Shown piece by piece: positions 15,294 through 35,962 of a stretch of 64,000 nucleotides of DNA. Below the pieces are notes generated by a model. The model worked only from the letters and a program-made list of their open reading frames with translations. It did not search any database and was not told the DNA's origin. Both the position numbers and the translations under genes were made by a program. The first letter of the stretch is position 1; each line of letters starts with the position of its first letter. The stretch comes from Marsupella aquatica (taxonomy: Eukaryota > Plantae > Marchantiophyta): NCBI GenBank assembly GCA_973895155.1, contig OZ316891.1:6605708-6669707 (forward strand). The letters are read 5' to 3'.

Positions 15294-15584
15294 CTGGGGG
15301 GTTTCACTTCCATAGAATTGACACATCACGTACGACTAAGACTAAGGTAGTTTTGGGTTTTAAGAAAAGACTTGGAAATGTTTTCCGTGGAAGAACTTTA
15401 TGGTCTTTTAAACCCAATTTTGAGTTTTGTAAGAACATTAGGGTCCTTGTACTAATCAATGTTTTTTGGAATATTCCAATTCTATAGGGTTTTTTTTCAA
15501 ATAGATTTTTTCTTATATTTTCAGGGGTACACGGCTTAAAAACATCGCAGGTGATGGGGGCTTCTATGTAGTGAGACCCCCTTG
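15294..15584 (-). mobile_element. hAT-type MITE (~290 bp), same family as 17425-17721, opposite orientation
   Basis: Termini ctggggggtttcact...agtgagacccccttg. Degenerate 8-bp TSD aaccaagc/aaccaaat. The body is the reverse complement of 17425-17721. Confidence 0.75.
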
Positions 15585-15999
15585 AACCAAATGCACAACG
15601 GCACAATGCCAAACGCCTTATGGTAGCCCGAGATTGTCAAAAAGCTGGCCAAAAGCAGCCTAAGGCCGAGACAAAGCCTGAGTCAGATGGGATCAAGGTC
15701 AACAACCATAACACAGAATTGAAAGGAAACCAAAACCCAATTCAAAAGAAGGGGGCCAACCTATAGGTAAGTGGGAATTTGCCAACAACATTCTTTGTGA
15801 AAGTATAGGTGGCAATGAGAGGACATCCAACTTACCCCAAAGCAAGCAATTGAGAGTAGGTGCAGAAAGCAACCGTCAAAGCAGGGGAAAGAAAGAGAAG
15901 TTAGCTAGGGTCCCTAAATTTGCACTCATTGTGAAAGTATGGTCCCTTCCTAGCCTTGCCATGTTCACCTAGTTAGTGTCAAATCCAATAAGAACATAG

Positions 16000-16024
16000 T
16001 GACGGACCAAACGAGAAGTGTGAC
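16000..16024 (+). repeat. Left terminal inverted repeat of the large element
   Basis: Reverse complement of 35938-35962 with one mismatch; overlaps a hairpin aaacgagaagtgtg-ac-cacacttctcgttt. Confidence 0.85.
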
Positions 16025-16340
16025 CACACTTCTCGTTTTTCCCGCGGCTAAAAAAATTCTAAGGCAAAAAAGTGTTGGATACGGAATTAGTATTCCATGT
16101 AATAACCCAGATTTTAGATTTTTAAAACAGGAAAAAATGACTTGAATCCAAAGCAGGGATACGGCGTATCACATTTTGGATCCCACCGCAGTTTTCAAAA
16201 AAACAAAATCAACAAACGCAGTAAAAGGGGCGAGGACAGTTTACCCGTCAAGAATATTCCTAGAGGATTCCTTTTAACGGTCACTTTTAATCGACTACGA
16301 CAAAACTATGGTCAGAAACTGACCATGGTCAGGGGGAAAC

Positions 16341-16383
16341 TATAAATAGGAGAGCGACGACTCAAAATTTTTGGCTCATTTCT
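16341..16383 (+). promoter_or_regulatory. TATA box + initiator-like motif of cargo gene 1
   Basis: TATAAATA at 16341 and GCTCATTTCT at 16374, the same layout as at 18673/18704; followed by a GT-AG intron 16467-16851. Confidence 0.5.
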
Positions 16384-16498
16384 TCTTGCTCCCGCATTCG
16401 CTTGCTCCCGACGAATCCACAATCTGTATGCATATTCGTATCCCCCAAGTCAGACTACAAAAACAGGTGAGAAATATATATTTTTGAAAATCACGAGG

Positions 16499-16795
16499 AT
16501 GAATCCCAAATGGGATACGGCGTGTCCGGTTTGGGATTCAATCTTGAAAAATCCAGTCTTGGCATGACGAAACATGAGAAAAAGAGGTTGGATGCGAAGT
16601 GGGATATCCCACTTCGCATCCAACCTCTACATAAGAAGGTCTTGGTTGAAAAATGCAGGAAATTTGGAAGTTGAATGTGAAGTGGGATACCCGGTATCCC
16701 ATATGGTATTCAACCTCTGAATATCAATCAGGTTAGGTCCAAAAGGCGAAGTTTGAATGCTAAGTGGGATACGGCGTATCCCTTCGGATATTCAG
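16499..16795. repeat. Palindrome array 1 (4 copies, ~85-bp period) in intron 16467-16851
   Basis: Copies at ~16499, 16583 (perfect 46-bp palindrome agaggttggatgcgaagtgggat|atcccacttcgcatccaacctct), 16670 and 16752; a further single copy at ~16143. Confidence 0.85.
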
Positions 16796-17424
16796 CAATA
16801 GCTTTTTTGTGATGGCGAAAGATATCTTAAGTATTGGCGATTGTTTTGCAGGCTAGGTTCTTATCAACTTTGACAGAAGCTCTTGCTTCCTTCGAGCCCG
16901 CCATTTTGGAGTGACGAACTATTAAAGCTTTAGCTTTCGTTGAGACTAACATTTTCTCAAGTGAGTTCAATGACGGTCCAGATTCAAAACCGAGATAAAC
17001 GTGCTCATCGATTGTATAAGAGATTAGTTGAACTCAAAGTGCTTCCTACTGGATTAGGAGCGATTTGGATGGGAGGCGTAGATCCTCAAGATAGTCTCAA
17101 TCCGCTCCGAATTGAGTTTTGCAGAAAGAATGAGCAAGGAGTTCCGATTCGGTCAAGAATTTTTTGAACGGTTGTCTGCATTCTGTTGATTCTTCGTGTA
17201 ATTATTGTCGTGATGATGAAAACAAGTATCATCGATTGGCATACTTGTGTTGTCGAATTTGGAACGAAGATCCTTGGGTTAACTCTTCCCATTGAATCTA
17301 CTTGATTCTAGGGTCACAAATATTTGGAGTTTTGTTCAGTATTCTTGGCTCTCAAATATTTAGACATGATGTTTTTCTTTTGATCAAAGAAATAAAGTAA
17401 TTGTTTTGATCCCTGTTTTGTAGG

Positions 17425-17721
17425 CTCGGGGGTCTCACTATATGGGGACCTCCCCATCGCCTGCGACGTTTTTAGGGCTCGGACCCCCTAAAATGTAAGA
17501 AAAAAAAATTATTTTTTAACCCCTATAAAGTTGGAATATTCTTGGAATATTCTAAAAATTGGATTAAAAAGGCCCTAATGTTCTTATAAGTCTCAAAATT
17601 GAATTTAAAAGACCCTATTGTTCTTCTACAAAAATTCTTAAGTCTTCCCTTAGAACCAATAAAATGACCCTATCCTTCGTCGCACGTGATATGCCATTTT
17701 TGTGGAAGTGAAACCCCCGAG
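17425..17721 (+). mobile_element. hAT-type MITE (297 bp) nested in the large element
   Basis: TIR ctcgggggtctcact / agtgaaacccccgag; perfect 8-bp TSD TTTGTAGG at 17417-17424 and 17722-17729. Confidence 0.9.
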
Positions 17722-17803
17722 TTTGTAGGTTCTTCAAACAGAGAACTTCTCCATTTTCTCTATCACTCAAGGTATTCCTTTTTTCGTGTCAAATTGGTTT
17801 GGA

Positions 17804-18347
17804 ATGGCCGTCCCTCAAAACCTTGTCTTTGCAAGGTTAGCGACCATATTTGAGAACGAGAAGAAGAAACAAATTGAGCAGAAACGGAGCCGAAGGGAAT
17901 CCGGACTACTTTTGGATGGACTTCCTGATGAGATTGTTGAAACGTTCATATGGCCTATTTTGAAAGTTTCTTGCATCGAGGACGAATTTGATTCTTCCAA
18001 GATCTCGGCTGAAGAAAGACTCAGCCGATTAAAAGAAATGGTTTGGCTGGGATCCTCCTCAAAAAAAATGGAACCAGCTTGTAGTTTGTACACGAGTATG
18101 GGGTCTCCTTCGACTAGCACGAAGCCAGTTTGAGGGATTAAATGAATTGCTTGATAGCGTTCCCCATGGAGACCCACTTCAGAATGTTCATCTCGCAAAC
18201 TTTTTTAGGATGGAAACTTTGAATCTTCCCCCAATCGATTTCCTTGGTTTGTTTTCGACATCAGAACTAAGTCAATTTCAAGGGGACTGGCTAAATCTAG
18301 AGAAAGATCAACAAGCCAAACTAGTGGAAATATATGGACAAACTTGA
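17804..18347 (+). pseudogene. F-box-like cargo protein, frameshifted at the A-run ~18061
   Basis: LLDGLPDEIVETFIWPIL resembles the F-box consensus (LxxLPxEIxxxI). The reading continues in another frame after the oligo-A tract (ORF 18147-18347). Confidence 0.5.
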
Positions 18348-18672
18348 TTAATGTTCTATCATTCATGCTTAGGTGTGCTCATGGTGAGCTACTTGTAAAA
18401 ATGTTTTTCATGAATCAATATTTACTATCTTTTGTGGCACATCTTTGGACCAAACTCAGATTGTCAGCATTTTGCCCTGGCTGGCTTCCAGACCTTTAGT
18501 TTCTCGTTGCCAATAGCATCCAAATGAGGGTATCCCATATCGGATTACTCCACTATATTTTTCCGTAAAACATTCTTCAAACCCTAAACTGCATACTAGA
18601 TTAGCCGCGACTATTTCAAGCGACTATTTCGAGGAACTAACTGCCTTGTTACGTAGTGGACCCAGGAGAAAG

Positions 18673-18713
18673 TATAAATAAGAGTGCCTCCCCCAAAAGT
18701 TACGCTCATTTCT
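18673..18713 (+). promoter_or_regulatory. TATA box + initiator-like motif of the methyltransferase-Ulp1 gene
   Basis: TATAAATA at 18673 and GCTCATTTCT at 18704; a splice acceptor ttttgcgcAG at 19317-19318 sits just before the ATG at 19320. Confidence 0.5.
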
Positions 18714-18839
18714 CATCTCTCACGCCGCCTCTCACTCTTTCCAAATACCCATTCTCCATAGATATTTGTATTCCCTCGGCAGACACTCCATCACCAATTG
18801 AGAATACAATCTCCACGATATTTTCATACAAACTGGGAG

Positions 18840-19241
18840 GATGAATCCGAAGTGGGATACCGCGTATCCCACTTCGCATTCACTTTGGCCGAATTCTTGT
18901 TTGAGAAGAAAAATGCAATGAGATGTCGGGGATGAATATGAAGTGGAATACCGCGTATCCCACTTCGCATTCAACATGCAAATCTTCAAAGTTATTGAAA
19001 TCCTCAGCGCAACTAAGGGGATGAATCCAAAGTGGGATACACAGTATCCCACTTCGGATTCATCTCCAAGATTTCATGCTTTCTTAATGAATAGCCAGAA
19101 TAGGGGCGGTTCGATACGAAGTGGGATACCGTGTATCCCACTTCGCATTCATCCCCAAGAATTCATACTTTTTATATGAAAGAGCCGGAATAGGATGTGT
19201 TGGATACAAAGTGGGATACCGCGTATCCCATCTCGCATTCA
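18840..19241. repeat. Palindrome array 2 (5 copies, ~90-bp period) in the 5' leader/intron of the methyltransferase gene
   Basis: Consensus gatgaatccgaagtgggatac-cgc-gtatcccacttcgcattca at ~18840, 18931, 19020, 19109 and 19199. Confidence 0.9.
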
Positions 19242-20679
19242 CATATTGGATTATGGACTTGTTGCTCAAGTGGACCATATTAGGCTTGAAATTCTAACAT
19301 GTGGTTTGTTTTGCGCAGGATGTCGAACAAGTCAAGTGCTTTGGGTTCCTCTGGCTCTTCCCGACAAGCCATCATTGATGAAATCTGGAAAAAGGATCTC
19401 TATGTTGAGGAGAAATTCCTCAAGAACAAGTGGTATTTGTGTGATGCTCGTGAGCTTGATCTTCATCAAGCATATGCAGGCCCAGCATTATGGTTGATTG
19501 TCGTGAAGGGTAAAGAGCATTGCCACCAAGGATTGGTGATCGACACGGCCGAGTCGGACATCGTTGATACAAAAACCAAGAAAGTTAAGAGGGTACCAAT
19601 GTTTCTTTGCATTGGTGTTGATAAGACCTTCTCTGTGTTGGTTCTCAACTATGAGAAACTTGATCGAGTCTCCATGAATGCATTTCCGGAAGACCCGATC
19701 ACTCAGCTCGTGGCGGAGGCGCCTGATGTGGATGCATTTTTGTTTTGGTGCTTGAATTATGTCTTCACGTCGTGGAAGGTGGTGCGGGACTTCATCAACA
19801 TTGTGTATCGCTTAGTGGTTGGAGAAGACTTTAAGGGTCCCGAAAGAACTCCATTGAAGTTGAAGATACATAGGCCAACTAATCCGTCTGGGACAGTGGA
19901 GGGTTCGGAGACAACCACAACAAAAGAGCAGGCAGTTTCCGAGCCAAAGAACAAGAAGAAAGCACTAGCAACATCTGTTGGAAAATCTGGGGAAGGATCA
20001 GGTGCCACTATCTCCGAAGATCCTCTGAAAAAGAAGACTAAGTTGGATCGACGAGAAATCCAAAAGAGAGTAGTGTCAATAGCTCCCCCTTCGCCTTTGA
20101 GATCGGTAGATGAGATTCCTCCAACTTCACAAGGTGGGCCATCCGTTGCATCGAAGGGGAAGGGTCCGATGATTCCAGGGGTTGGGAAAACATTGAAGAA
20201 GCACGAACCAATTTTCCAGATATTATTTAGATCAGGAAAAGTTTGGGACCTCCAAGACCAGATCTTTGACATGTGGAACAGATTTGAGATCAAGGGGCAG
20301 ACCAAACAAAAATCCCCTGTGAAGATAGTGAAGAAAGGGTCCAAGTTAAAGGCCGTGCCCGTCGTGAAACCTTTGAACAAGCTAGCAAATGGGCTAGCAT
20401 TGACACCTTGGAGAGCGATCCAAGGGATTGAGCACGACCGGTTTTTGGAATCCCTTCTCCTTCAAGTCAAGGATCGAATGATCAGTCTAGAGCAAATGGC
20501 CAAAGAGGCCGAAAGTTACAAGAAGCTTGTGAAGATCAGTAAACTATTTGTGCAATTGTCTGGCCAACCAGACTAGGCAACTTGTAAACAGATGTTTCCC
20601 AAAGAGACGCAGTCTGCGGAGCTCGAAAGATGGAGTGGAAAACTCTTGGATGTGGTAAGTTGATTTTGTGTTTTCAAAG

Positions 20680-21078
20680 GTTGAATTCAAAACTGGATAC
20701 GCGTATCCCATTTGGGATTCACAATCGATTCTGGCTCCATTCAAGTTGTTTCTTTCTTTTTGTCTGGGTGGAATCCGAAATGGGATACGGGGTATCCCAT
20801 TTCGGATTCGACCCCAGGTTTTGGCTGTGTTAGCGTTGTTCCTTTGATTTTCCCTAGGTGGAATCCGAAATGGGATACCCCGTATCCCGTTTGGCATTCA
20901 ACCCCGGGTTTTGGCTGTGTATGCGTTGTTCCTTTGAGTTTCCCTAGGTGGAATCCCAAATGGGATACCCCGTATCCCATTCGGGATTCAAGTTGGAGTT
21001 TGAGGGTTAGAAGCATGATTCACCAGATTTATTTAGTCGAATACCGAATGGGAGACTCGGTATCCCTCTTGGTATTCA
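20680..21078. repeat. Palindrome array 3 (5 copies, ~90-bp period) in intron 20656-21111
   Basis: g(t/g)gaatcc(g/c)aaatgggatac-nnn-gtatcccatttcggattc at ~20680, 20768, 20858, 20948 and 21036. Confidence 0.9.
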
Positions 21079-21329
21079 GTGCATTAACTCTGGTGCCTTG
21101 ATGTTTTATAGTTGAAAGCCTTCTCGAAGAAGAAGAACAAAATGGTTCAAGTGTCAAATGATGGCGAGGAGACTGTTGAGGAGGAGCTTAGTTCCGATGT
21201 TATCCCCCTTGGTTTTAAGAATATGGTTCAGGAAGCTATTGAGAATTATAATCGTCGGATTGGTATCGATACTGTTCAAGCGGAATCAAGCGACCACCGT
21301 TGGAAAAATTCTGATGGAAATTTCATCAA

Positions 21330-22020
21330 CTACACTCTCCACTGTGGAGATGTCCGGGCGCTTGATAGGTTCTTGGAGAAACGGCCTTACACACTTGCAG
21401 TCGCCGACATTCCTTATGGATTCAATGCCATCGGCTCTGAGAATGATGAAGTTCCATTTTCAGAGAAAGATATTATTGATACATGGTGAAATGTTTTGCT
21501 AAGGTGACTACTTCACCTATGTGGAGGTTTGTTGTTATTCATTCGCTGCAACAAAGTGTCTCCGTTTTGAATGCTTTGGGAAAGACTTGCAACGCTGGAG
21601 TTGAGGCAGGAATTTGGGAGAAGCCAAATGTACATGCACACCCCTCCGGGAATAGGCTAGCTTGGGCGTTTGAGAACTGGTCCATTGGATATTATAATGA
21701 AGGTGGTATCAGGACCAGGGAAATGTACAATTTCGAGCATGATGAAAAAAGAATCAACATCATCAAGGTTCCTTGTGTTACCAAAAAATGTGTAACACCC
21801 TTAGGGGAAGTAGTGAATCCGTATCAGAAGCCGATAGCCCTCACAGACTGGTTCATCAAGCATTTTAGTGAAGAAGGAGATTGGATTGTTGATTTATGCG
21901 CTGAAAGTGGGTCCACTTCGTGTGCGGCTTTGTTGGCAAAGCGACATGTTACAGCTTTGGAGTTGAGTGCTCAACAAATAGACTGTATCCAGACTCGACT
22001 AGTCACGCTGGATGAATCAT
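21330..22020 (+). CDS. DNA methyltransferase domain (N6_N4_Mtase fold, beta motif order)
   Basis: Catalytic motif IV DIPY (21406-21417) precedes the HPxQKP-like NPYQKP and SAM-binding motif I DLCA(G>E)SGST, followed by ALELSAQQIDCIQTRL. This order is typical of beta-class amino-MTases. Confidence 0.85.
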
Positions 22021-22348
22021 GGGACTTGAATGAGGAAGCAATTGAGGAGGGTACAGGGCCGATGAGTTTTGAGATACAACCACCGATTGGTGGTATGACA
22101 AGCACTCTCACCACCGGACCTTGCATCATTACAACCACGGCTGAGAATGATGATGATGTAGATGAAGACGAGGAGCAGGAGGAAGAGGAAGCAGAAGCTC
22201 CGGCATTAGATCTTGGCTCATTCCTCGAGGTGTCGAGATTATTTTGAGATTAGATTGCTGCAAATGAGATTTCCCCAAATTGTATATGAACTTCTGGAAA
22301 TATTCCAAGAGATTTAGATGTTCTTATGTGACAATAATGTCCTTGCAG

Positions 22349-23001
22349 GATCCACCAAAGGAGGTTATTGAATTGAAAAGTGTTCTTCATAGATTTTTGC
22401 ACAATCCTTTTGTTGGTCATCTCCTCAATCAAGAAACATTGGAACAACTTGAACCCGACCAATATTTGGGTGACGAAATTATGGAATTTTACCCAGAGTC
22501 CCAAACAGAAGAACAGGGAGATCTTGCTCCAATGGTAAACACGTTATCCTCCTTTTTTTATCCTTGGATGGCATCAAGGATTGAAAAAGAACCAACACAT
22601 GAATCCCTTAAAGAATCTTTACAGAAAATGCGAGGTTATTACAAGCCACCATTTTCCAAGATTGAGGTTATTCTTATGCCAATTCACATGAGTGGCCATT
22701 GGAGTTTGGTTGTCATATGTTTGGATCGATCTCAATCTTTGATCCAAATGTATCATCTAGACTCACTTGCTGGTCGATCTACATGAAACTCATGTAATTG
22801 AATCGGCACTGAAAAGGTGAAAGACTTAACTTTATCTTCTAGTACTATTTGTTTTTCAAATGAGATTATTTAATTCATGTGATTATAAATGCTACTTTAA
22901 CTAAGGAATCACTTTCAATGACTTGCAGATATTTCACAATAGAATGGGAACTATTTTTTGGAAAAGTGCCATTGGGTGTTATGGAGATGTGGAATCCAAA
23001 G
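22349..23001 (+). CDS. Ulp1 (C48) SUMO protease, N-terminal exons with catalytic His and Asp
   Basis: ETLEQLEPDQYLGDEIMEFY; ILMPIHMSGHWSLVVICL; MYHLDSL. Confidence 0.8.
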
Positions 23002-24219
23002 GTATGTAATTTGTTTCATTTTTAATTCTTTTTATCTCTCTATTCATTAAAACTAGAAAATTCTTTGATCTTTGGACATTTGGGCACTAAAATACATATT
23101 TTTGGGCACAAGAATTGTACATTTGGGTAGTGAAAGTTGTACATTTGGGCACCATTTAATGTACATTTGGGGAATCAAGATTGTACCTTGGGGAAAAATA
23201 AATATTAATTTGGATTCTAAAGAAAAACATTTGGGTGATAGAAATATAAAATGTGTTGGATAATAAATAAAACATTCATCTAGTCTAATAATTAAGATAT
23301 AAGCTTGGATATGATCTCTACCCTAATCTTATGCTTTGATCATTAATAGGGTTCTAAATTCATGTTATTCTAGTTGCTTGGAACTCTCCACACTAAAAGC
23401 AATTCTACACAAGAATCCAATATCAAATTACTCAAGAATCCAATATCAAATTACTCAAGAATCCATCAAGAACAATTTTACTAGAGCCTTCATAATAGGC
23501 CACACAAGAATCCAATATCAAATTACTCAAGAATCCATCAAGAACAAGTTTAAACTGAGACTCTAGATGAATTCAGAAGTGCATAAACCCCCTATGCAGT
23601 CATTTTCTACACATCAAATATGGAAAGAAATGCATGTACAATGCTTCACATGAGAACTATCTAGTTAAACATGTGGGAGAAAGAATAACAATGGGATGGG
23701 CGACCTCTCACTTGAAGCTATGCACCAAATTTGGCGCTCCAAATTTTGCTAGTTTCCATATACTCCTCATGTAGTGTTGGCCATCAACGTCAATAGTAGT
23801 GGGTGCAGCAGCTAAACCAAATATTTGGAGCTCCACATTGTGCTAGTTTTTAAAATAATATAACTGTCACTATTGCTGGCCAAAATTGCACCATCCCCAA
23901 GGCAACCTTAACTCCAAAACTGCACCATCCTAGAGGCAACCTTAACTCTCCATCAATGACCAACAAACCTCTTTTCCTCACAAAAGTACCTACCCAAAGA
24001 GACAACAGTTGTTGGCTCTAGATGATCTTGAGGTAAAATAGTGATCCTCAATAACCAAGGAAATCATTCTAAAGATTCTCAACTATCACTAAACCCTTAC
24101 ACAAATGTAAAATAAGTTGTTAGCTATAGTTGATCTTGAAGGAAAATTGAGACTTGTAATTGCCTCAAAAAATCATTATATAGCAATTTCTCAAAAATCA
24201 TCAAGAGACCTCAATTAAT

Positions 24220-25665
24220 GAAAAGCTTACACAATTGTTGGCTCTTGATGATCTTGAGGTAAAATCAAGGCCCCTAAATTTCCAAGGAAACTGCTCTAAA
24301 GATGCTTCACTATCAAGAAATATATATCCAAAGCTTACACAATTGTTGGCTCTAGATGATCTCGAGGTAAAATAAAGGCCTCTAAGCTTCCAAGGAAACG
24401 GTTGTGAAGATGCTTCACTATCAAGAAATACGTATGTGTGGGAGAAGGAATAGCAATGGGATGGATGAACTCTCACTTGAAGCTATGCACCAAATTTGGA
24501 GCTCCAAATCTTCCTAGTTTCCATATACTCCTTACGTAGTGTTGGCCATCAACATCGATACTAGTGGGTGCAGTGGCTGGACAAAATATTTGGGGCTCTA
24601 CGGCTCCACGTCTCGCTAGTTTTCAAATACAACTATCACTATCACTAGCCAAAATTGCACCATCCCAAAGGCAACGTCAACTCCAAAATTGCACCATCCC
24701 AGAGGCAACCTTAACTCTCCATCAATGACCAACGAACCTCTTCTCCTCACAAAAGTACCTACCCAAAGAGACAACAATTGTTGGCTCTAGATGATCTTGA
24801 GGTAATAGTGATCCTCAATAACCAAGGAAATCATTCTAAAGATTCTCAACTATCACTAAACCCTTATACAAATGTAAAATAAGTTGTTAGCTATAGTTGA
24901 TCTTGAGGGAAAATTGAGACTTGTAATTGCCTCAAAAAATCATTGTAGCAATTTCTAATCATCAAGAGACCCAATGAAAAGCTTACACAATTGTTGGCTC
25001 TAGATGATCTCGAGGTAAAATCAAGGCCCCTAAATTTCCAAGGAAACTGCTCTGAAGATGCTTCACTATCAAGAAATACGTATCCAAAGCTTACACAATT
25101 GTTGGCTCTAGATGATCTCAAGGTAAAATAACGGTCTCTAAACTTCCAAGGAAACGGTTGTGAAGATGCTTCACTGTAAAAAAATACGTATCCAAAGCTT
25201 ACACAATTGTTGGCTCTAGATGATCTCGCGCAAGGCAAAATGAAGGCCCCTAAACTTCCAAGGAAACCAATGTAAAGATGTTTCACTATCAAGAAATATG
25301 TATCCAAAGCTTACACAATTGTTGGCTCTAGATGATCTCGAGCCTGTAACACATGGGCCTCTAACTTGAAAGAAAACCGTTGTGAAGATGCTTCACTATC
25401 AAAAAATATGTATCCAAAGCTTACACAATTGTTGGCTCTAGATGATCTTGAGGCAAAATAAAGGTCCCTAAGCTTCCAAGGAAACCGCTGTGAAGATGCT
25501 TCACTGTCAAGAAATATGTATCCAAAGCTTACACAATTGTTGGCTCTAGATGATCTCAAAGTAAAATGGGGACTCTAACTACCACAAAGATCACTACGAA
25601 TGCATCCCTCACCCTAAACAAACCCTCGCCAAAGCTACAATAAACTCTTGGCTCTAGATTATCTA
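24220..25665 (+). repeat. ~105-115-bp tandem repeat with core aagcttacacaattgttggctctagatgatctcgag
   Basis: Units at ~24224, 24331, 24980, 25087, 25195, 25307, 25417 and 25525. Confidence 0.85.
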
Positions 25666-26414
25666 GCTAGAGATAAACTAGATAATTGCTATAGAAATTG
25701 GTAGGGTTATGGGTTTAGGGTTTTCTGCCCCCAAAACCTGGCCTGATCTATCCTTAACCAAAGCTCAGACCAATAGAAATATTAGCAAGGAGGAGCTCAA
25801 GAGACTTGGAGAGAGGGAGAGCGAGAGGAAGAGCAAGAGGAACAGAGAACAACATGACAACAAAAATGAAACTAGTAAAATGATCCTCGCAACTGGGAAC
25901 AAAGGATTATATGCCACCGACTGACTCACGAGAGGGCCCAACAATCTGCGTACGGATTTGTGTACGGATTGCTTTAACTGCACACCAAGGGCATACGGGT
26001 TGCATTAAATGCTTTATCATACCTGACACACTTATGCCTCTCTCATACTTGTATCTACCTAGTGTTGCCTTTGGACATGACATACGGTGCGTTGAGGAGA
26101 TTTGAATTCCGATCATTTGCATTTTTATCTTTCCTCTTTCTTGCAAGAGCTCCTCCCTTCTTGCTCTTGCTTTGAGATCTTGGTTGTAGCCTCTAGATCT
26201 TAGTTTTAGCTTGGGTCGAGATCTATGTGCTAGCCTCAAGATCTTAGTTTTAGCTTGGGTTGAGATCTGTGGGCTAGCCTCGAGATCAATATGGTAGCCA
26301 CATGGTTTTAGTGCTAGACTATAGGGTCAAGATCGGAGTCGAATCAGTTGTCACCACTCATGATCGACCACGTGTCATCCATCAATTGCTTGTTGCGATG
26401 TCCACTCGGAGCAC

Positions 26415-29400
26415 TAGGAGACTCTAGATCATCTTGAGCTTCTTGTCTTGACTTTGGTTTTATAGTGTAGAATATTGAAGCACTTGGAGGCTCTAGATCG
26501 AGCCTCTTGCATGTCTTCATTTTGGTTTAAGAGTGCAAAAATTGAAGCGCTTGGAGGCTCTAGATCATCTCGAGCCTCTTGTCTTGACTTTGGTTTCATA
26601 GGGTAGAAAATTGAAGTGCTCGAAGACTCTAGATCATCTCAAGCCTCTTGTCTTGACTTTGCTTTTATAATGTAGAAAATTGTAGCACTTGGAGGCTCTA
26701 GATCACCTTCAGCCTCTTGTTCTGCCTTTTATTTTAGAGTGCAGAAAATTAAAGTGCTCGGAGGCTCTAGATCATCTCAAGCCTATTGTCTTGACTTTGG
26801 TTTTAGAGTCCAAAAACTTCAAGCGCTCGGAGGCTCTAGATCATCTCGAGCCTCTTGTCTTGACTTTGGTTTTAGAGTGCACAAAATTGAAGTGCTTGGA
26901 GGCTCTCTAGATCATCTTGAGCCTCTTGTCCTTAGTTTGGTTTTACAATGTAGAAAATTTCTTGGAGGCTCTAGATCATCTCGAGCCTCTTGTCCTTAGT
27001 TTTGTTTTACAGTGTAGAAAACTTCTTGGAGGCTCTAGATCATCTCGAGCCTCTTGTCCTAACTTTGGTTTTAGGGTGCAAAAAATTGAAGCGCTTGGAG
27101 GCCCTAGATCATCTCGAGCCTCTTGTCCTTAGTTTTGTTTTACAGCGTAGAAAACTTCTTGGAGGCCTCTAGATCATCTCGAGCCTCTTGTCCTAACTTT
27201 GATTTTAGGGTGCAAAAAATTGAAACGCTTGGAGGCTCTAGATCATCTCGAGCCTCTTGTCTTGACTTTGGTTTTAGAGTGCACAAAATTGAAGCGCTTG
27301 GAGGCTCTCTAGATCATCTCAAGCTTCTTGTCCTTAGTTTTGTTTTACAATGCAGAAAACTTCTTGGAGGCTCTAGAACATCTCGAGCCTCTTGTCCTTA
27401 GTTTTGTTTTACAGTGTAGAAAACTTCTTGGAGGCTCTAGATCATCTCGAGCCTCTTGTCCTAACTTTGGTTTTAGGGTGCAGAAAATTGAATCGCTCGG
27501 AGGCTCTAGATCATCTCGAGCCTCTTGTCCTTAGTTTGGTTTTATAGTGTAGAAAACTTCTTGGACGCTCTAGATCATCTCGAGCCTCTTGTCCTGACTT
27601 TGGGTTTAGGGTGCAGAAAATTGAAGCGCTCAGAGGCTCTAGATCATCTTGAGCCTCTTGTCCTGACTTTGGTTTATAGTGTAGAAAATTTCTTGGAGGC
27701 TCAGATCATCTCGAGCCTCTTGTCCTTAGTTTGGTTTTCTAGTGTAGAAAACTTCTTGGAGGCTCTAGATCATCTCGAGCCTCTTGTCCTGACTTTGGTT
27801 TTAGAGTGCAAAAAGTTGAAGCGCTCGGAGGCTCTAGATCATCTTGAGCCTTTTGTCCTTAGTTTTGTTTTACAATGTTGAAAACTGCGTGGAGACTCAA
27901 GATCATCTTAAGCCTCTTGTCTTGACTTTGGTTTTAGAGTGCAGAAAATTGAAGCCCTCATAGGCTCTAGATCATCTCGAGCCTCTTGTCTCGACTTTGG
28001 TTTTAGAGTGCAGAAAATTAAACTGCTCTGAGGCTCTAGATCATCTCGAGCCTCTTGTCCTGCCTTTGGTTTGAAAGTGCACAAAATTAAAATGCTTGGA
28101 GTCTCTAGATCATCTCGAGACTCTTGTCCTGACTTTAGTTTTAGAGTGCAGACAATTAAAGTCCTCGGAGGATCTAGATCATCTTGAGCCTCTTGTCTTG
28201 ACTTTGGTTTTAGAGTCCAAAAACTTCAAGCGCTCGGAGTCTCTAGATCATCTCAAGCCTCTTGTGCTGACTTTGGTTTTAGAGTGCACAAAATTGAAGC
28301 GCTTTTAGATGCAGCCTGTGGGAGGGAGCCTGTGGGAGTGGCGCAGCTTTTTGTCTTGCACCAGATTCTCTGGAGGCTCTGGATTGGGAGAAACACTCAC
28401 ATGTTTCAGACGGGGGGGGGAGACGTGTGTTTGACCTGGGACTTGTCCTGTCGGAGGCAGTGGAGAACTTATTCGCTACTGGTCGGCGTTGCCCCCATGG
28501 TAGGAGGTGCACTCGCCTGCTATGGGCCAAATCATGTATTGATGGGCTTTGCAGGAGCTGGCTCGATGGTGGGGGGACCAGTTTCACTTCCGCTGGATGA
28601 CTCTGATTTTTCTGTGAGGTTGGAACGTTGAGACCAATGAATGTATGGTTCTGGGGGCAGGGATGCCCTATGGCTGGTTATTAGGTTGTGTGGTCGTCCT
28701 CTTTTGCTGTTAGGTATCGCCGGGGAGGTTAATTCCTTGCCTGATGTGGGATTAAGGTGATTTTTTGAGGTTTGGTCCTCTGTTCTGTCTTGGCTGTCTC
28801 CCGTGAATATGATCTGTTTGTGCGCCCTCCCCGTGGGGCTTTTCGCAGGGGAACTGAAATTTATAAAATGGCTACCATTCCAAGGAAAATTGAAGTGCTT
28901 GGAGGCTCTCTAGATCATCTCGAGCCTCTTGTCCTTAGTTTGGTTTTACAGTGTAGAAAACTTCTGGGAGGCTCTAGATCATCTCGAGCCTCTTGGCCTG
29001 ACTTTGGTTTTAGAGTGCAAAAAATTGAAGCGCTTGGAGGCTCTAGATCATCTGAAACCTCTTGTCCTAACTTTGGTTTTAGAGTGCAAAAAATTGAAGC
29101 GCTCGAAGGCTCTAGATCATCTCAAGCCTTTTATCTTGACTTTGGTTTTAGAGTGTAGAAAATTAAAGCGTTTGGAGGTTCTAGATCATCTCGAGCCTCT
29201 TGTCCTGCCTTTGGTTTTAGACTGCACAAAATTAAAGCGCTTGGACCGAGGCTCTAGATCATCTTGAGCCTCTTGTCTTGACTTTAGTGTGAGAGTGCAT
29301 AAAATTGAAGCGATTGGAGGCTCTAGATTGTATAAAGCCTCTTGTCTTGACTTCTGTTTTAGAGTGCAAAAAATTGAAATAGTCTAAGGCTCTAGATCAT

Positions 29401-29760
29401 CTCGAGTCTCTTGTCTTGACTTCTGTTTTAGAGTCCAAAAACTTCAAGTGCTCGGAGGCTCTAGATAGTCTCGAGACTCTTAGCTTGTCCTGACTTTGGT
29501 TTTAGACTGTGGAAATTGAAGCGCCTGAAGGCTCTTGATCATCTCAAGCCTCTTGTCCTAACTTTGGTTTTAGAGTGCTGAAAATTGAAAGCGCTTGGAG
29601 GCTCTAGCTCATCTCGAGCTTCTTGTCTTTGACTTTGGTTTTAGAGTGCAAAAAATTGAAGTGCATGGAGGCTCTAGATCATCTCGAGCCTCTTGTCCTT
29701 ACTCTGATTTTAGAGTCCTGAAAACTATTAGCACTTGGAGGCTATCGATCATCTGGAGTC
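26415..29760 (+). repeat. ~62-bp satellite (~40+ copies) with hairpin core ggaggctctagatcatctcgagcctc
   Basis: The unit ggaggctctagatcatctcgagcctcttgtc(c/t)tgactttggttttagagtgcaaaaaattgaagcgctt repeats throughout, interrupted at 28305-28885. Confidence 0.9.
28305..28885 (+). mobile_element. 5'-truncated L1-type LINE 3' end inserted in the satellite
   Basis: QILWRLWIGRNTHMF matches the L1 ORF2 C-terminal WxxWxxRNxxxF motif, followed by a 3'UTR-like stretch. Flanked by aaaattgaag(c/t)gctt direct repeats (candidate TSD). Confidence 0.65.
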
Positions 29761-30571
29761 CAAAAGATTCAAAGGGGTTTTGCTTTAGGTCTTTTGTGGA
29801 GCCAAGTTATTATGATAATTGTTGTACCTGTCCTATAAGTTCTGGAATATAGTGTCGTAGGTGGTGTGCAACCGAGGTATGAAATTTGATTTTTCAAGGT
29901 CTGGACTTGCTTGCTCAAATGATTTCTACCAACTAAGAGAGTCATGAGTGTAATATTTAGTCAAAGATAAACCCTCCATTTGGGTCTAGACTATCTCAAC
30001 CATCTAAGTATGATAAATATAAGTTCTTACATAGATAGGAGATTAGGGTGGTTGCAATCTCTACCCTTAATTAATAAGGACAAATGACCATTCATCACTT
30101 GCTACCCTTGACAGTCAAACTACCATATTTACTAGTGTTACTTAGGGTAGAGACGATTGACTAAACTGATATAGTGATTCATGTATTTTCAATAATTTTA
30201 ATTTAATATATTGTATATAGATTGTTATATTCTATTCATTGATATGCTTTTTTAGACTATATAATAATAATGATACTATATAGTATAATAATATAACTTT
30301 CTATTATATGAATATTAATTAATTATAAATTACTATTTAGTTATTTAATAATTTAGGTACAAGAAGTGTAATTTTAGACCACAAAAAGTGTACATTTGGC
30401 CTACCAAATATATACTTTTGGGGCAAATTTTGTGAAATTTTGGGTAGCAAAATAATACTTTTGAGCATCAACTTTTGGACTCTAGAAATTCCAGTTTTAA
30501 TGAATAGAGTGATTTTTGGGTTCAAAAACATATCTATAAATTGTACTAAAATACACCATGTTTTTTATCAG

Positions 30572-30772
30572 GTGCCACAACAACCAAATACCACAGATTG
30601 TGGTTTATTTGTCCTGCACAACATGGATGAAATTAGAGTTCGATGGAATAATTCAAAATCTGTATCCGCAGAGTCTTTATTTACAAGAGATTGGTACAAC
30701 CCCACACAAGCATGTCATCTGCGAAAGGTGATCAGAGATAGAGTTATGAAATTAATGCATGTATCAGCCTAG
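30572..30772 (+). CDS. Ulp1 protease terminal exon (oxyanion Gln and catalytic Cys)
   Basis: Acceptor ttttttatcAG then VPQQPNTTDCGLFVLHNM; phase 0, matching the donor at 23002. Confidence 0.85.
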   Translation: MPQQPNTTDCGLFVLHNMDEIRVRWNNSKSVSAESLFTRDWYNPTQACHLRKVIRDRVMKLMHVSA

Positions 30773-30791
30773 TTTAATTAGTAAATGAAAC

Positions 30792-33700
30792 TCAATCTTC
30801 TGAAGATACAGAACCTCGCTCTAAAATAGCAGCCTCTATGATCTTCTTTATTTTTGCTGCTATTTGGTTATTTGTCAAAAGTGCAAAATTGTATGCATAT
30901 ATCGCTATTGACGACAAAACTAGTTCATCTTGATGAAGTCTATTAGATACATTATCTTTTTCTGGAAAATATTTTCCATCAATTGCAGTCTCAGCACTTG
31001 CCTCAGTTGTGTACCACGTGATTTTGATTCTTTTCGGAATGTCTTCTCTTTTTGTCAAAATCTTTTCGACACCTTTGCCATCCAAAATAACTTGCCTTCT
31101 GGATCTTTGTGTGCTGCTACGCATATCATTGACCATTTGTTGTTCACTTCCATATCTTTGAAATCCCCAAGTTCAGGTTGCTTTCGCCGAGGACCTGAGT
31201 ACATAATCCTCTGTGGTCCTGCAACTTTATCAACTAGAGTTGGGTCAACATCTTCGGACGTCAAAATCTGATTTGTTGACACACCACCAAGTCCACGCCT
31301 TTCATTTTGTTGTGGCCAAACCCATTCAAATAACCACTCACCCTCCTCTAAGTGGTTTTTGATAACATCATTTTGCTTCTCAAAGAATGTCATCCACCAT
31401 AGTTTATCTTCATCGTCAAAGTAATTGAATCCCTCTTGAATTGCTTTTTGATATTTCACCAGAATGGATAATGCACCATTTGAGTCCATCAGATCATCAT
31501 CTCGTTCAACACCTTTTGCTGACTTTAGTGACATCTGTGCTGCAACCCACATTCTTGAAGTGGGGATGTAGTTGACAAATGCTACCACGTCTCCCCAATC
31601 AGAGGTTGTAGATAGATGTTTCCCATGAAACATGGTCACTTCGTTATCATCTACAATGCCTCGCTTGAATCTGAATTGCCTTTGAAAAGTTATGAGGTTG
31701 AGATCTCTCAAAACTCGACCTGAAACTCCGTTGTCATTTGGTTGGTCGGTCTCATTCACAAATTTTCTGAAGTCTGCAACTTCATCCACAAAAATTACAT
31801 CTGCTTGAGGAGAATATGCCCATTGTATAATATCCACAAGAGTATCTAAGCGAAATGCTTTATGCTTGTTTAATCTAGATGAGAACTTGCTAAACATCTT
31901 ATCTATTTGGTCATGCGTATGACCAACCAACAAAAAACCAACTTTTATCTTGTCAAAAACCTTTAAATCTACCAACATGTGTAGATAAGCCATCAAGAAT
32001 TTATTCTTGTTCTCCCTAGTGGTATTATCCAATTGAAGATATAATACCCGTGGCAATATCCCATCCCATGTATTCAAAATATTTTGAATAACATGAATGG
32101 TGAGATAATTTGCATCATTGTGGATGTTGGGGTAGGTCAGAAAAACTTTTGCCGCAAGCTTTCTATTAAAGATAAGACAACCCACAACATGGATAGGGAT
32201 GAAATATTTCTCATCCATGTTCTTTGGACAACGAATAAAATGTGGTAGCTCAGTTTTCTTTTGATCCATACTGTCAATACAAATACCCAAATACTTGTTG
32301 GGTTCATCATAGCATTTCTTTCGATGCTTTGCCAACTTCATCCTCTCGAGTGATTGTACTCTTCAATGCTCCATAAGAGCGTTGATATACTTTCCTGCAA
32401 TAATACAATCATGTGTAATCAATAAATTATCTATTCATCATTGTGTCTAACTTATCACTATCTTACTTAGACACAAATGTGAGGTTACAATGAACTTACT
32501 TTTATCTTCTTCTGTCGTTGCTTTGTCTCGAAGAGCCTTGAATTCGGTACATGGACCACAAGTGGAAAAACAACTCCTTTTGGGAATCCGCACATTTGAA
32601 AACTTCTTCTTCCAAACGCGCAAGAAATAAGAATATGTAACATATTGCTCTTCCCGCAAGATTGTTTCGGCAAGAAAGATTTCATGAATCTCTTGCTTTG
32701 TCCAATTGTTTGGCAAGTGATGAATTTCTTTATGAGGAAGACTATCCATGTTTCTTTGAAAGAAATCTTTCAACCATTCCACCAAGTTGAGAAATGAAGG
32801 TGAGTCTTCCTTACAGAATGTATCTCGTTCAATCCTGGTGAACATGTTTGCATGGATTGTAGCCAACCTATTATTCCCTATGGAATATAATTTCTTGAAA
32901 CCTCCTCTACAAATAGTTTGTCCATTCACACTATATCCACGGGAAGTATTATAATTACTCATAATACATCCTCGCAAAAGAATGTTTTTTTGTGAGTGTG
33001 AGAGACCAAAATAATACTTACGTTGTTTCCAACATTCTTCTAGACCTAAAGACCTCAAGCAAAACTTGTCACAACAAGAATACTTAAAAATATCTTTAAT
33101 TTTTTGTTTTTTCAAGTTCGCATTGATAAGCCTATCTTTTCGAATCATCTGGTCTCTAATTTTTTTGCTTGGTCTTCTCACCTCTATTCTATCTTGTATT
33201 GTGTTGGGAGAATTCACTCCTCCACTAGTTTCCATGGGACTCATTGAACTTAAAACAAAAGTATCTTGATTTTCTCCGGTATTAGTTTCACTCTCTACAT
33301 TTTCTAAGACTGGTTCGTGAGCACTCTCGCGACCAAGGATCTCTTTAACAATATTTGAGATTTCAACAGTCCCTATGGCATCCTCTACGACATCGGCTGG
33401 TACCTCCGATTCTTCTTCAGATTCTTCTGGAAAAGCAATTGGTACCCGAAGATTTCTTGTCTGAAATCTTCTACCGATATTCCTTGCTTCTATCGGAGTA
33501 TCCCCCACTTGTCTCTGAAAGTGTGATCCTTGCCTTGGTGTCTCATCTCGACTAGAGGGATCATCCTGACCATTGAATAGTCTTTGAACAACCTTCAATT
33601 TTCCTTCTAGCCTTGAATTTTCGGGGCAAGTTTGTGGCAACGCACTTTGCAACAATCTGTGAGGCATTTGATGGACACCTGCAGCATTTGTGACACTTGA

Positions 33701-34885
33701 TCTCCTTCCTCCCTTTTGAAATGGTCGTCCTACCAAAGATCCAGCAACCTCACACTGCATTCGAGCCAAAGGGCTTCGAAGCCCAAAGTTGATGTTTGAT
33801 TGACCACTAGGCGAAATCACCGATGGGAACACGGAATGGGATCCATGGATCCCAACTCGTATTCGTCCACTTGGACTTCGAAGTGACAGCTGCCCCACTT
33901 GTGGTTCTATGGTAGCGCTTGACAATTGACCATTGTGTAAAACAAAGTGGGATCCACGGATCCCCTGTCTCATTCCTCCACCCAAAGCGACTAACAAAGT
34001 TTGTCCGCTTTGCAATTCGGGCTCAACATTTGGTAAAATTCCAGGAGGGGATACCAAGTGGGATCCGCGGATCCCCTTCCGCATTCCTCTCCCCGAATCA
34101 GCAGGCAATGGTTTTTCGCTTCGCATTTCGGGCTCACCATTTGGTAAAATTCTAGGAGGGGATACCAAGTGGGATCCACGGATCCCATTTTGCATTCCTC
34201 CCACCAAATCAGTAGGCGAAGGTTGCCCGATTTGCAATTCTGGCTCGCCATTTGGCAAAATTCCAGGAGGGAATACCAAATGGGATCCACGGATCCCACT
34301 TGGTATTCCACTAATGGCATTTGGTAGCGAAGGAGATGAAATTGGCAATTCACGCTCTCCATTCCGCAAACTTCGAGTAGGGATCCCTCTGGGTATTCTT
34401 CGTGCGGCTGGCACTTCTAGCACCGTCGAACTTCTCATTCGCTCAAACTGCGATTGCACACTAGACAAAGCTATCTGGACTCCAGGAGGACGCGACATTG
34501 GGAAAACCAGAGGAGATCTCTTGGCGGGCCTACATAGCAACATTGTTCTTGGCATTATAAACCGAGGCCGACGCTTGGGTACATCTGGAGGGGTTCACGG
34601 TGAACTAGTCTGACCTAAGGGTATGACAGTGGACTTTCTCCCAAGCAAACGTCGTTTAAGCGGTTTGCTTGGAGAAACATAATAAGGTGTTGGAGCTCCA
34701 ACAACACTTCTCCCACACTCGGAATCAGGCCCTGAACTCTCTGAATCTGATGAAAATGACATCTCTGGCAAAACTCTTTGTGAGACTGGAAGCTCCTTCA
34801 TCAAACGAGATGGAATGAATTTTTGAACAACATCTGGCGAAGATGCATCAGAACTATAAATAGACTCGTCACCTGAAGATGCCAT
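30792..34885 (-). pseudogene. Sola-like (DUF7869-type) DDD transposase of the large element, with stops and frameshifts
   Basis: ATG at 34885, frame break ~34590, long ORF to the donor at 32499, intron 32499-32395, TGA at 32365-32363, ORF 32341-31055, frameshifted tail to 30792. Motifs SCCDKFCL, ICRGGF, WKKKFSNVRIPK, FSTCGPC, ICIDSMDQKK, YLQLDNTTRENKN, FLLVGHTHDQIDKMFS. Superfamily assignment is from recalled motifs. Confidence 0.8.
33825..34310. repeat. Palindrome array 4 (type B, GGGATCC-RY-GGATCCC), 5 copies at a 111-bp period, translated as 37-aa repeats in the transposase N-terminus
   Basis: Cores at ~33838, 33949, 34060, 34170 and 34282; protein repeat GI(R/H)GSH(L/F/S)VxPPGILPNxEPExxxxx. 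Confidence 0.85.
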
Positions 34886-35009
34886 TGAGATAGTATCAAG
34901 GTTCTATAGGAGTAAGGATTCCTATGGGGAGTGGACCGTTCCAGTGACTCCAATCTAGGAAAATAGAGACTCAATATTTGAGAACCTAAAATGAGTCATA
35001 AAAAATGAA

Positions 35010-35041
35010 GACGGAATCACATGCGAGCTTGTTCTTATATA
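35010..35041 (-). promoter_or_regulatory. Candidate TATA box of the transposase gene
   Basis: Minus-strand TATATAAG at 35041-35034, with tcattt ~30 nt downstream and the ATG at 34885. Confidence 0.4.
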
Positions 35042-35164
35042 GTTTTTGGGAAGATGTCCACGTGGCTTCCATTCATTGGTCCGTACAAATTTTTAAATGT
35101 GAACAAAATTGATCTTTGAGAGAAAAGAGTATTCCAAAATTGTTTGTTTCTTGAGTTGGATCGG

Positions 35165-35360
35165 ACAATGGGATCCATGGATCCCGATTGGTATTCAAAC
35201 ATTGATTTAGCAACGCGGGGGTTTGACAAGGGCAAATTTGGAAGGGTGAATACCAAATGGGATCCGTGGATCCCATTTCGTATTCACCCCGACTTTTGGC
35301 TTAGCTCTTTTTGGACTTGGGAAATAAAATGGGATCCATGGATCCCTGTTGGTATTCATA
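35165..35360. repeat. Palindrome array 5 (type B, 3 copies) upstream of the transposase; a single type-A copy follows at ~35590-35632
   Basis: gggatccatggatccc (35170), gaataccaaatgggatccgtggatcccatttcgtattc (35248) and gggatccatggatccc (35331). Confidence 0.85.
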
Positions 35361-35937
35361 TCTCTAATTTGTTAGATGGAGGGTGGCGGTTGGGAAATAA
35401 ATGGTCTACAGTATGTCCAACCATCTGCTTGGGTTAACTTAACTGACTGCATTTGTCGACCATGGTTGCTAGTAAAGTTTATACAGTACGTCGTTTTACC
35501 TTTGGTAAATATTCAAATCTAGTTTACTCGGTATGGTAACTTAAGGCCCCAAATGATCAACTTAGTGTGTTTTTGTTTGATTTTCCACGGATGAATCTGA
35601 AACGGGATACGGCGTATCCCATTTTGGTTTGAATGATTTGCTTGTCAAATGGAGATTTGTGTTATTGAAGCTTTTCCGGGCGAATTGATTAAGCGCGCGG
35701 AAATAGGACTTGAAAATCATTGTTTTATGGGTTTTGTGTTTGACAAATATTTTTGGGATCAATTGTTCTAAAATCAAAGATTTTAATGATTTTCCATTTT
35801 TTGTCAAAAAGTATCTCAATTTGGAATCGGATGTTGGATCCAATTTTGCATTCATCTAAGAATTTGTGTTTTTGATATCAATTTAAGATATTTTTTGCCG
35901 TTTTTTGCAAAAATCAAAACACACTTCTCGTTTGGTC

Positions 35938-35962
35938 GTCACACTTCTCGTTTGGTCGGTCA
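35938..35962 (-). repeat. Right terminal inverted repeat of the large element
   Basis: gtcacacttctcgtttggtcggtca, preceded by a tandem partial copy at 35920-35937. Confidence 0.85.

Follow-up and report, generated by a model that had tools for sequence, protein, structure and literature searches.

Methyltransferases (MTases) borne on transposable elements, namely on retroelements, and motif-guided accessory genes with a captured Ulp1 SUMO protease, in the VANDAL transposons, are already known. VANC genes with captured Ulp1 (KIU) recognize motifs in the non-coding parts of their own elements (PMC13317346). DAM-carrying retrotransposons of the DIRS and long terminal repeat (LTR) types and retrotransposons carrying DNMT are eukaryotic elements with prokaryote-like or captured DNA MTases, by which these elements are thought to modify the chromatin of their own copies (bioRxiv 10.64898/2026.05.21.726589; PMC5890265), and DAM-LTRs were reported to be absent from Streptophyta (bioRxiv 10.64898/2026.05.21.726589). 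In phages, ParB-terminase loci have been described (PMC4738411). Here, a stretch of 64,000 nt of the liverwort Marsupella aquatica (assembly GCA_973895155.1, contig OZ316891.1, positions 6,605,708 to 6,669,707; referred to as the window, with position 1 as its first nucleotide) was analyzed. It contains a decayed DNA transposon of the cut-and-paste type with terminal inverted repeats (TIRs), which carries the gene for a beta-class amino-MTase as cargo. A preliminary description of positions 19320–30772 had predicted a single polypeptide in which this MTase, horizontally derived and with acquired introns, is fused to a Ulp1 protease.

A TIR transposon carrying a beta-class methyltransferase gene

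The element spans positions 15993–35969, i.e., about 20 kb, or about 12.5 kb once an insert of 7.48 kb is subtracted. Alignment of the ends delimited a left TIR with an internal repeated unit (15993–16040, plus strand) and a right TIR (35920–35969, minus strand); 26 of 28 positions of the left TIR are identical to the reverse complement of 35935–35962. The 4-bp direct repeat TAAG, a candidate target-site duplication, precedes the left TIR (15989–15992) and follows the right one (35970–35973). A match at both flanks has a chance of about 2% over five registers, and this value refers to one insertion only. The inverted repeats bracket both the MTase gene and a gene with a DUF7869 domain, and four DNA runs from two organisms yielded contigs with many divergent copies of the element. 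Thus, the TIRs, the flanking 4-bp repeat, a DDD transposase-like gene and multiple copies, which characterize a TIR DNA transposon, were all found.

The transposase-like gene (31055–34594, minus strand; Pfam DUF7869, E 4e-44) converges on the MTase gene. Its acidic triad is intact (CIDSMDQ, QLDNTTRENKN, GHTHDQID), and 2 nt at 31066 are missing from the sister copies. Streptophyta are the commonest group in the Atlas cluster of this protein, and a PDB sequence search of the open reading frame (ORF) at E<=10 gave no match. The DDD-type triad motifs and the candidate 4-bp duplication, observed at one insertion, would fit Sola1, to which the element may belong. Sola1 has been listed for Physcomitrella (PMC9033089), and the literature searched contained no mention of MTase or Ulp1 as cargo of a Sola element. 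A second, distant DUF7869 remnant with 34% identity to the transposase-like ORF is located at 59695–61427 (minus strand), and neither an MTase nor a Ulp1 match was found near it.

Contigs of all four DNA runs join across 23027–23032/30512–30520, and therefore the 7.48-kb stretch at 23030–30513, with 25-bp inverted ends and flanking T runs, is a private insertion nested in intron 4. It was also considered as a part of the gene, and this was rejected because sister copies lack it. Between 23672 and 29758, the insertion contains a tandem duplication of 760 bp, one 108-bp array and a pair of long 69-bp arrays (28 and 12.5 copies) with the common core GGCTCTAGATCATCTCGAG.

On the basis of translation and a splice-site listing, the cargo was modelled with five exons on the plus strand, the first two of which encode the ParB-like/MTase part. 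Exon 1 (19320–20654) comprises 445 codons. Intron 1 (20655–21111, phase 0) has the same position and phase in all five sister loci examined. Exon 2 (21112–22229) encodes the amino-MTase with the motifs DIPY (21406), NPYQKP and motif I (21891), followed by an acidic tail, as identified by Pfam, Foldseek and comparison with sister copies. The Pfam N6_N4_Mtase match in 21480–22244 scored 29.5 bits (cut-off 26.7). A structural model of the sister protein P0012 (predicted local distance difference test score, pLDDT, of 58) matched CcrM in Foldseek at E 4e-13, with CcrM, RsrI and BceJIV as top matches. Thus, the claim of a prokaryote-type beta-class enzyme interrupted by introns was supported by the Pfam and Foldseek matches together with the selection on the sister genes described below: DIPY precedes motif I, in the same order as in the sisters, and the structure search returned the expected N6_N4-type MTases, including N4CMT.

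The window copy itself is a pseudogene and cannot make the fused polypeptide. It carries an in-frame TAG in exon 1 (20574–20576), a surplus of 2 nt (21481–21482) in the stretch from motif IV to motif I, a G>E change in motif I, 4 extra nt in the Ulp1 part, the 7.48-kb insert in its last intron and the 2 extra nt in the facing gene. As a result of the frameshift and the G>E change, its S-adenosylmethionine (SAM)-binding and catalytic motifs are not intact in one frame. Motif I reads DLCAESG; G occupies the changed position in 120 of 125 relatives. Intact copies, for which an absence of motif I or IV would have contradicted the earlier assignment, do have them: catalytic and SAM motifs are intact in 12 of 13 sister ORFs, and the thirteenth, P0013, reads NLCCGTG.

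These 13 relatives, with 59–62% identity, were obtained among 264 candidates in a search with the MTase half, and sister elements that keep both MTase and transposase show 57–60% protein identity. A profile search yielded 1273 cluster representatives at E<=0.001 and 163 at 1e-10. Named relatives come from Chara braunii, Riccia sorocarpa and Ginkgo biloba, and together with the Atlas cluster of the transposase they point to a plant host. Seven metagenome loci (L001–L007) were fetched. In L002, L005 and L006, a DUF7869 gene converges on the MTase gene and ends 578–728 nt past the MTase stop. Linkage of MTase and transposase covers the window and these three loci, and not the Chara, Riccia or Ginkgo proteins.

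The proportion of synonymous differences (pS, 0.48–0.91) exceeded that of nonsynonymous differences (pN, 0.04–0.29) in all 15 pairs of sister MTases compared. Synonymous sites were near or at saturation in most pairs. The dN/dS comparison across copies that had been proposed gave 0.05–0.08 in the three unsaturated pairs. Thus, the sister MTases are under strong purifying selection. In a maximum likelihood tree of 83 rows (quick search; 93 of 199 rows passed a 150-residue filter, 83 after removal of duplicates), the window MTase fell into a clade of 30 rows with its close sisters (SH-aLRT 99), apart from the rows of Chara, Riccia and Ginkgo. Since both phage rows were lost at the 150-residue filter, the tree is silent on the donor or direction of a transfer. 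None of 34 pattern matches in viral contigs and none of 50 in prokaryotic genome contigs was a relative of the MTase. A horizontal origin of the MTase is suggested by its domain architecture.

The mark made by the enzyme is probably N6-methyladenine (6mA) rather than N4-methylcytosine (4mC), judging from motif IV. Its first residue is D in 111 of the 118 aligned relatives and S in two (near-duplicates included), and the two described eukaryotic 4mC enzymes, MpDN4MT1 and N4CMT, have (T)SPPY at this place. Alternatively, the enzyme could make 4mC and thereby block or pre-empt host 5-methylcytosine on the element. Beta-class 4mC enzymes do exist in Marchantia and rotifers, and Adineta N4CMT and PvuII were among the Foldseek matches of P0012, albeit at ranks 10 and 27, whereas the two best fold matches were CcrM, a 6mA enzyme. 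Together with the rarity of S in motif IV, this makes the 4mC alternative improbable.

A ParB-like module and subfamily-specific palindromes

The domain preceding the MTase is present in long relatives and in the loci L001, L003 and L005. A model of the L003 exon (pLDDT 81) gave ten best Foldseek matches that were all Noc/ParB (E 2e-6 to 6e-5), and in VIA-align it matched PadC with a Z-score of 10.2 (root-mean-square deviation 2.9, 99 aligned) and KorB with 8.7. The Pfam family HTH_ParB was matched by the sister module at E 3e-4, below the cut-off. Both a ParB/Srx N-terminal fold and a helix-turn-helix (HTH) were found in L003, while the window copy keeps the helical half only. By its predicted fold, the sister N-terminus is a ParB/Noc-like module. 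The preliminary description had guessed that the N-terminus of about 445 aa serves DNA recognition; the guess was thus supported and made more precise by the sisters. In the window, exon 1 encodes an N-terminal domain without assignment, a low-complexity linker and the C-terminal helical/HTH half of the module. As a further observation, the Chara braunii gene model CBR_g41648 (P0038) contains two tandem ParB-like plus MTase units in 1825 aa, which may be a merged annotation.

Palindromes are arrayed in five clusters across the element, as revealed by a repeat search. Cluster 1 (16513–16782) is of the GGGATAC-N3-GTATCCC type. Cluster 2 (18845–19241), with a tandem unit of 90 bp, lies upstream of the ATG of the MTase gene, and cluster 3 (20695–20978) is housed in intron 1. 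Cluster 4 (33839–34299) lies in the open frame of the transposase-like gene, in its 5' region, and cluster 5 (35171–35620) upstream of that gene. Clusters of two palindrome types, GGGATAC-N3-GTATCCC and GGGATCC-N2-GGATCCC, precede every gene and are also located within intron 1 and the 5' region of the transposase gene. GGGATAC was counted 14 times in the 12.5 kb of the element, as compared to a single occurrence in the 44 kb outside. The palindromes differ between subfamilies: CCGAT-N6-ATCGG occurs 15 times in L003, and GAGAC-N2-GTCTC five to seven times in L001, L004 and L005. The sister palindromes sit in introns and near gene ends, and the arrays, with units of 16–19 bp, are specific to the subfamily. 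At 33839–34383, a palindrome-bearing repeat of 111 bp was observed inside an open frame of 715 codons upstream of the transposase core; it may be coding sequence and binding site at once.

ParB and Noc bind palindromes of the 16-bp class (parS and the Noc-binding site NBS). In combination with the subfamily-specific palindromes, this suggests subfamily-specific self-targeting, and by this analogy an intact protein likely binds the palindromes of its own element. The following sequence of events is proposed for the intact elements. The ParB-like HTH would bind the element's own 16–19-bp palindromes in the manner of parS/NBS recognition, and the bound MTase, given its D-first motif IV, would write 6mA locally. 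The mark or the bound protein might then keep the promoters and introns of the element open against host silencing, or time the expression of the transposase. As a whole, the reading that the ParB-like/MTase cargo targets its own palindromes, methylates adenine and aids expression, with desumoylation added in the Ulp1 branch, is given a probability of about 0.5.

Several observations weigh against this reading. In the window copy, the ParB core and an intron that the sisters have there are missing from exon 1; the loss may be confined to this copy or may characterize the Ulp1 branch. The CTP arginine-patch motif of ParB is GxxRxxA. The arginine is absent from the family, whose motif is GG[NG]H[GSTC]xxA: L001, L003 and L005 have GGNHGARA, and the 12 motif matches follow GG-x-H/N-[S,T,C,Y]-x-x-A. 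For this reason, the module is named ParB-like and not regarded as a CTPase ParB, and CTP clamping, judged from the motif, may not be applicable to it. In addition, the palindromes could instead be binding sites of the transposase.

The same arrangement of palindromes would also fit an autoregulator, in which the ParB-MTase methylates palindromes in promoters and ends and damps transposase expression or gates transposition, as Dam does on bacterial IS10/IS50. The clusters upstream of all three genes fit this alternative, as does the presence of GATC or GATAC in several palindromes. However, sister arrays are also found in introns and downstream of the MTase stop, and capture of a desumoylating enzyme would fit counter-silencing better. 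Autoregulation is considered rather unlikely.

The Ulp1 domain and its probable splicing to the methyltransferase

The Ulp1 part is encoded by exons 3 to 5. Exon 3 (22349–22816) contains the catalytic His (22697) and Asp (22760), exon 4 (22929–23001) has fitting phases, with the relative P0186 ending at the same donor, and exon 5 (30572–30772) contains QQPN..DCG with Gln 30578/30581 and Cys 30602, followed by the stop. Two pieces matched Pfam Peptidase_C48 with 43.5 and 24.7 bits (cut-off 20.7), and the best PDB matches were SENP7/SENP2 (E 4e-6). Thus, the Ulp1 identification was correct with respect to all four residues. In the window copy, 4 extra nt near 22774, between Asp and Cys, split the triad and oxyanion Gln between frames.

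Between exons 2 and 3, an intron of 119 nt is predicted (22230–22348). The donor GAG|GT at 22230 (no other AG|GT donor occurs in 22050–22335) and the acceptor TTGCAG| ending at 22348 are both of phase 0, as had been described, and the intervening sequence is 66% AT. The intron encloses the ancestral stop of the MTase (TAG at 22233–22235 in sisters) as well as an in-frame ATG (22337). Across 22170–22430 of the sister contigs, 31 of 119 positions in the gap varied, as compared to 8 of 142 flanking positions (p 4e-6 for the 40 of 49 variant rows listed; p 0.004 if the remaining nine are all exonic). All seven listed indels fall in the gap, and its GT and AG are unchanged among these 40 rows. The relative P0186 (68% identity) was called from M-Q-D, which corresponds to the acceptor LQ|D of the window, and ends at the next donor. 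No contig with the 22229/22349 joint was seen among the DNA contigs searched.

Taken together, the exon layout and splice sites proposed for a single polypeptide held, and a spliced fusion is plausible. As a general feature of the family it failed: Ulp1 is missing between MTase and transposase in the three informative sister loci (L002, L005 and L006), with L001, L003 and L004, which end 300–460 nt past the stop, and the decayed L007 being uninformative. The stop at 22245–22247, which had been read through to, is not the stop of the family, since the sister contigs read GAG GTG TAG (A at 22234). Likewise, the supposed acidic linker between MTase and Ulp1 is the ancestral C-terminus of the MTase, as the acidic tail is directly followed by the stop in 13 of 13 sister ORFs. 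In this branch, a spliced MTase-Ulp1 fusion, most likely as one of two isoforms, is nevertheless held to be somewhat more likely than not.

A number of findings speak against a fusion. All sister contigs of the runs X2–X4 read TAG two codons past the donor, and all six loci with an intact tail, like the 13 ORFs, end at the ancestral stop. A 3' untranslated region or spacer would likewise vary more than exons. The listed variants do not include the in-frame ATG (22337). The acceptor AG has been lost in one loose end of run X4 and is lacking in one low-depth contig. No fused protein was found among 164 candidates of 255–2000 aa checked for Ulp1, and no Peptidase_C48 in the 58 of 150 listed MTase relatives that were scanned (for one, 5 of 14 families were shown). 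These two negatives are weak because most entries are single-exon gene calls. As a separate observation, a contig of run X2 departs from the window sequence at 22233, i.e., at the MTase stop, and continues for 255 nt unlike the window; it possibly stems from a sister copy without Ulp1 in the same organism.

According to the main alternative, Ulp1 is a separate cargo ORF that starts at ATG 22337 or in another upstream exon, and the MTase always stops at the ancestral TAG. The stop fixed in the sister contigs and the natural C-terminus conserved in 13 of 13 ORFs are in line with it, and the ATG lies in frame four codons before the acceptor. However, only about 100 nt separate stop and ATG, and the acceptor is canonical and in the right phase. 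Moreover, P0186 begins at the acceptor and P0187 (four members) further in, so that neither has an M-S-L-Q start. The donor at 22230 lacks a G at +5, but the same holds for the donor of intron 3. A separate ORF is thus possible, though clearly less probable than splicing. A still different explanation is that Ulp1 is a functionless captured host fragment with splice sites left over from the donor gene. While the window copy is dead and only two Ulp1 relatives were found, these relatives (62–68% identity) keep an open frame, His and Asp, and over 82 nt at the exon start the sister contigs are free of indels, with two variant sites listed. It is hence regarded as very unlikely.

With regard to the favored fusion, the Ulp1 domain would have been captured in this branch of the element family. 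Alternative splicing at the donor one codon before the ancestral stop would yield two products, the short ancestral MTase and a longer MTase-Ulp1 protein, and the protease of the latter might remove SUMO from silencing proteins where the element is bound. The VANC-Ulp1 (KIU) genes provide a precedent, which counts in favor of an MTase-Ulp1 fusion.

Further features of the window and comparison with described systems

Inside the element, a decayed third gene-like region (16851–18347, plus strand), recognized weakly by translation, is split by a repeat of about 290 bp at 17428–17721. It had no Pfam match; a stretch in it may resemble an F-box, for which Pfam gave no support. An inverted copy of the repeat (73%) is located outside the element at 15294–15581, and the repeat is probably a family of miniature inverted-repeat transposable elements. 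Farther upstream, an ORF of the NB-ARC/STAND NTPase type (E 1e-9) with a DUF7779 piece after it (8001–10278, minus strand) represents a broken or multi-exon gene similar to those of the nucleotide-binding leucine-rich repeat class. A pair of inverted repeats of about 550 bp with 91% identity (10424–10958 and 13065–13615) surrounds about 2.1 kb of short repeats and looks like a long-TIR non-autonomous element.

A plant TIR DNA transposon with a ParB-like beta-class amino-MTase and subfamily palindromes was not found described in the searchable literature, from which Repbase and supplements were excluded. Tentatively, streptophytes from Chara to Ginkgo may host an undescribed DNA transposon lineage that uses a phage-derived ParB-MTase as private parS-like addressing, with the protein of each subfamily marking its own element with 6mA and with a SUMO protease spliced on in this branch. 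If this is true, adenine methylation in plants would have a source encoded by transposons, and the element would be a candidate pool for the domestication of host amino-MTases. Enzyme-made 6mA in land plants is disputed, and abundant 6mA as well as DAM-LTRs are treated as absent from streptophytes in the accessible text of bioRxiv 10.64898/2026.05.21.726589, in which neither 'ParB' nor 'PF01555' occurs. For the question of 6mA, a beta-class MTase that is conserved and present in many copies on DNA transposons of plants provides a concrete enzyme, and the palindrome arrays provide concrete sites.

The described systems each share a part of this arrangement. A phage protein (L008) encoded near terminase genes has ParB_N and N6_N4_Mtase in one protein, i.e., a ParB N-terminal domain followed by a beta-class MTase, and hhalign gave a probability of 98.5 over the MTase. 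The locus is of the ParB-terminase type described for phages (PMC4738411). Identity is 23–29% among the 20 listed matches and concerns the MTase only, and the plant version differs by its introns, extra N-terminal domain, acidic tail and location in a eukaryotic transposon. A chlorophyte ParB-HTH Dam family was rejected as a relative, as it is placed in group 2 (M.EcoKI/M.TaqI type) and not among the permuted enzymes (PMC4738411). MpDN4MT1 of Marchantia and N4CMT of bdelloid rotifers are, like the MTase described here, bacterial beta-class amino-MTases of the PF01555 type in eukaryotes, but both are encoded by host genes, have (T)SPPY and produce 4mC, whereas here DIPY, a ParB-like partner and transposon cargo were found. 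The MTases of the retroelements are NPP-type DAM or C5 enzymes, in contrast to a beta-class enzyme on a DNA transposon.

With the VANDAL/KIU system the element shares an accessory protein of a DNA transposon that recognizes, here by prediction, short motifs of its own subfamily, and the presence of captured Ulp1 in the same gene in some copies. The two differ with respect to the DUF7869 transposase, the TIRs and the ParB-like/amino-MTase found here, and no VANC or MULE family was matched in Pfam among the 26 window ORFs scanned. In addition, the amino-MTase is a predicted writer of a mark, whereas VANC induces hypomethylation. If the reading proposed here is true, the element would represent a second, independent invention of the VANC/KIU design, i.e., motif-specific self-targeting combined with capture of Ulp1.

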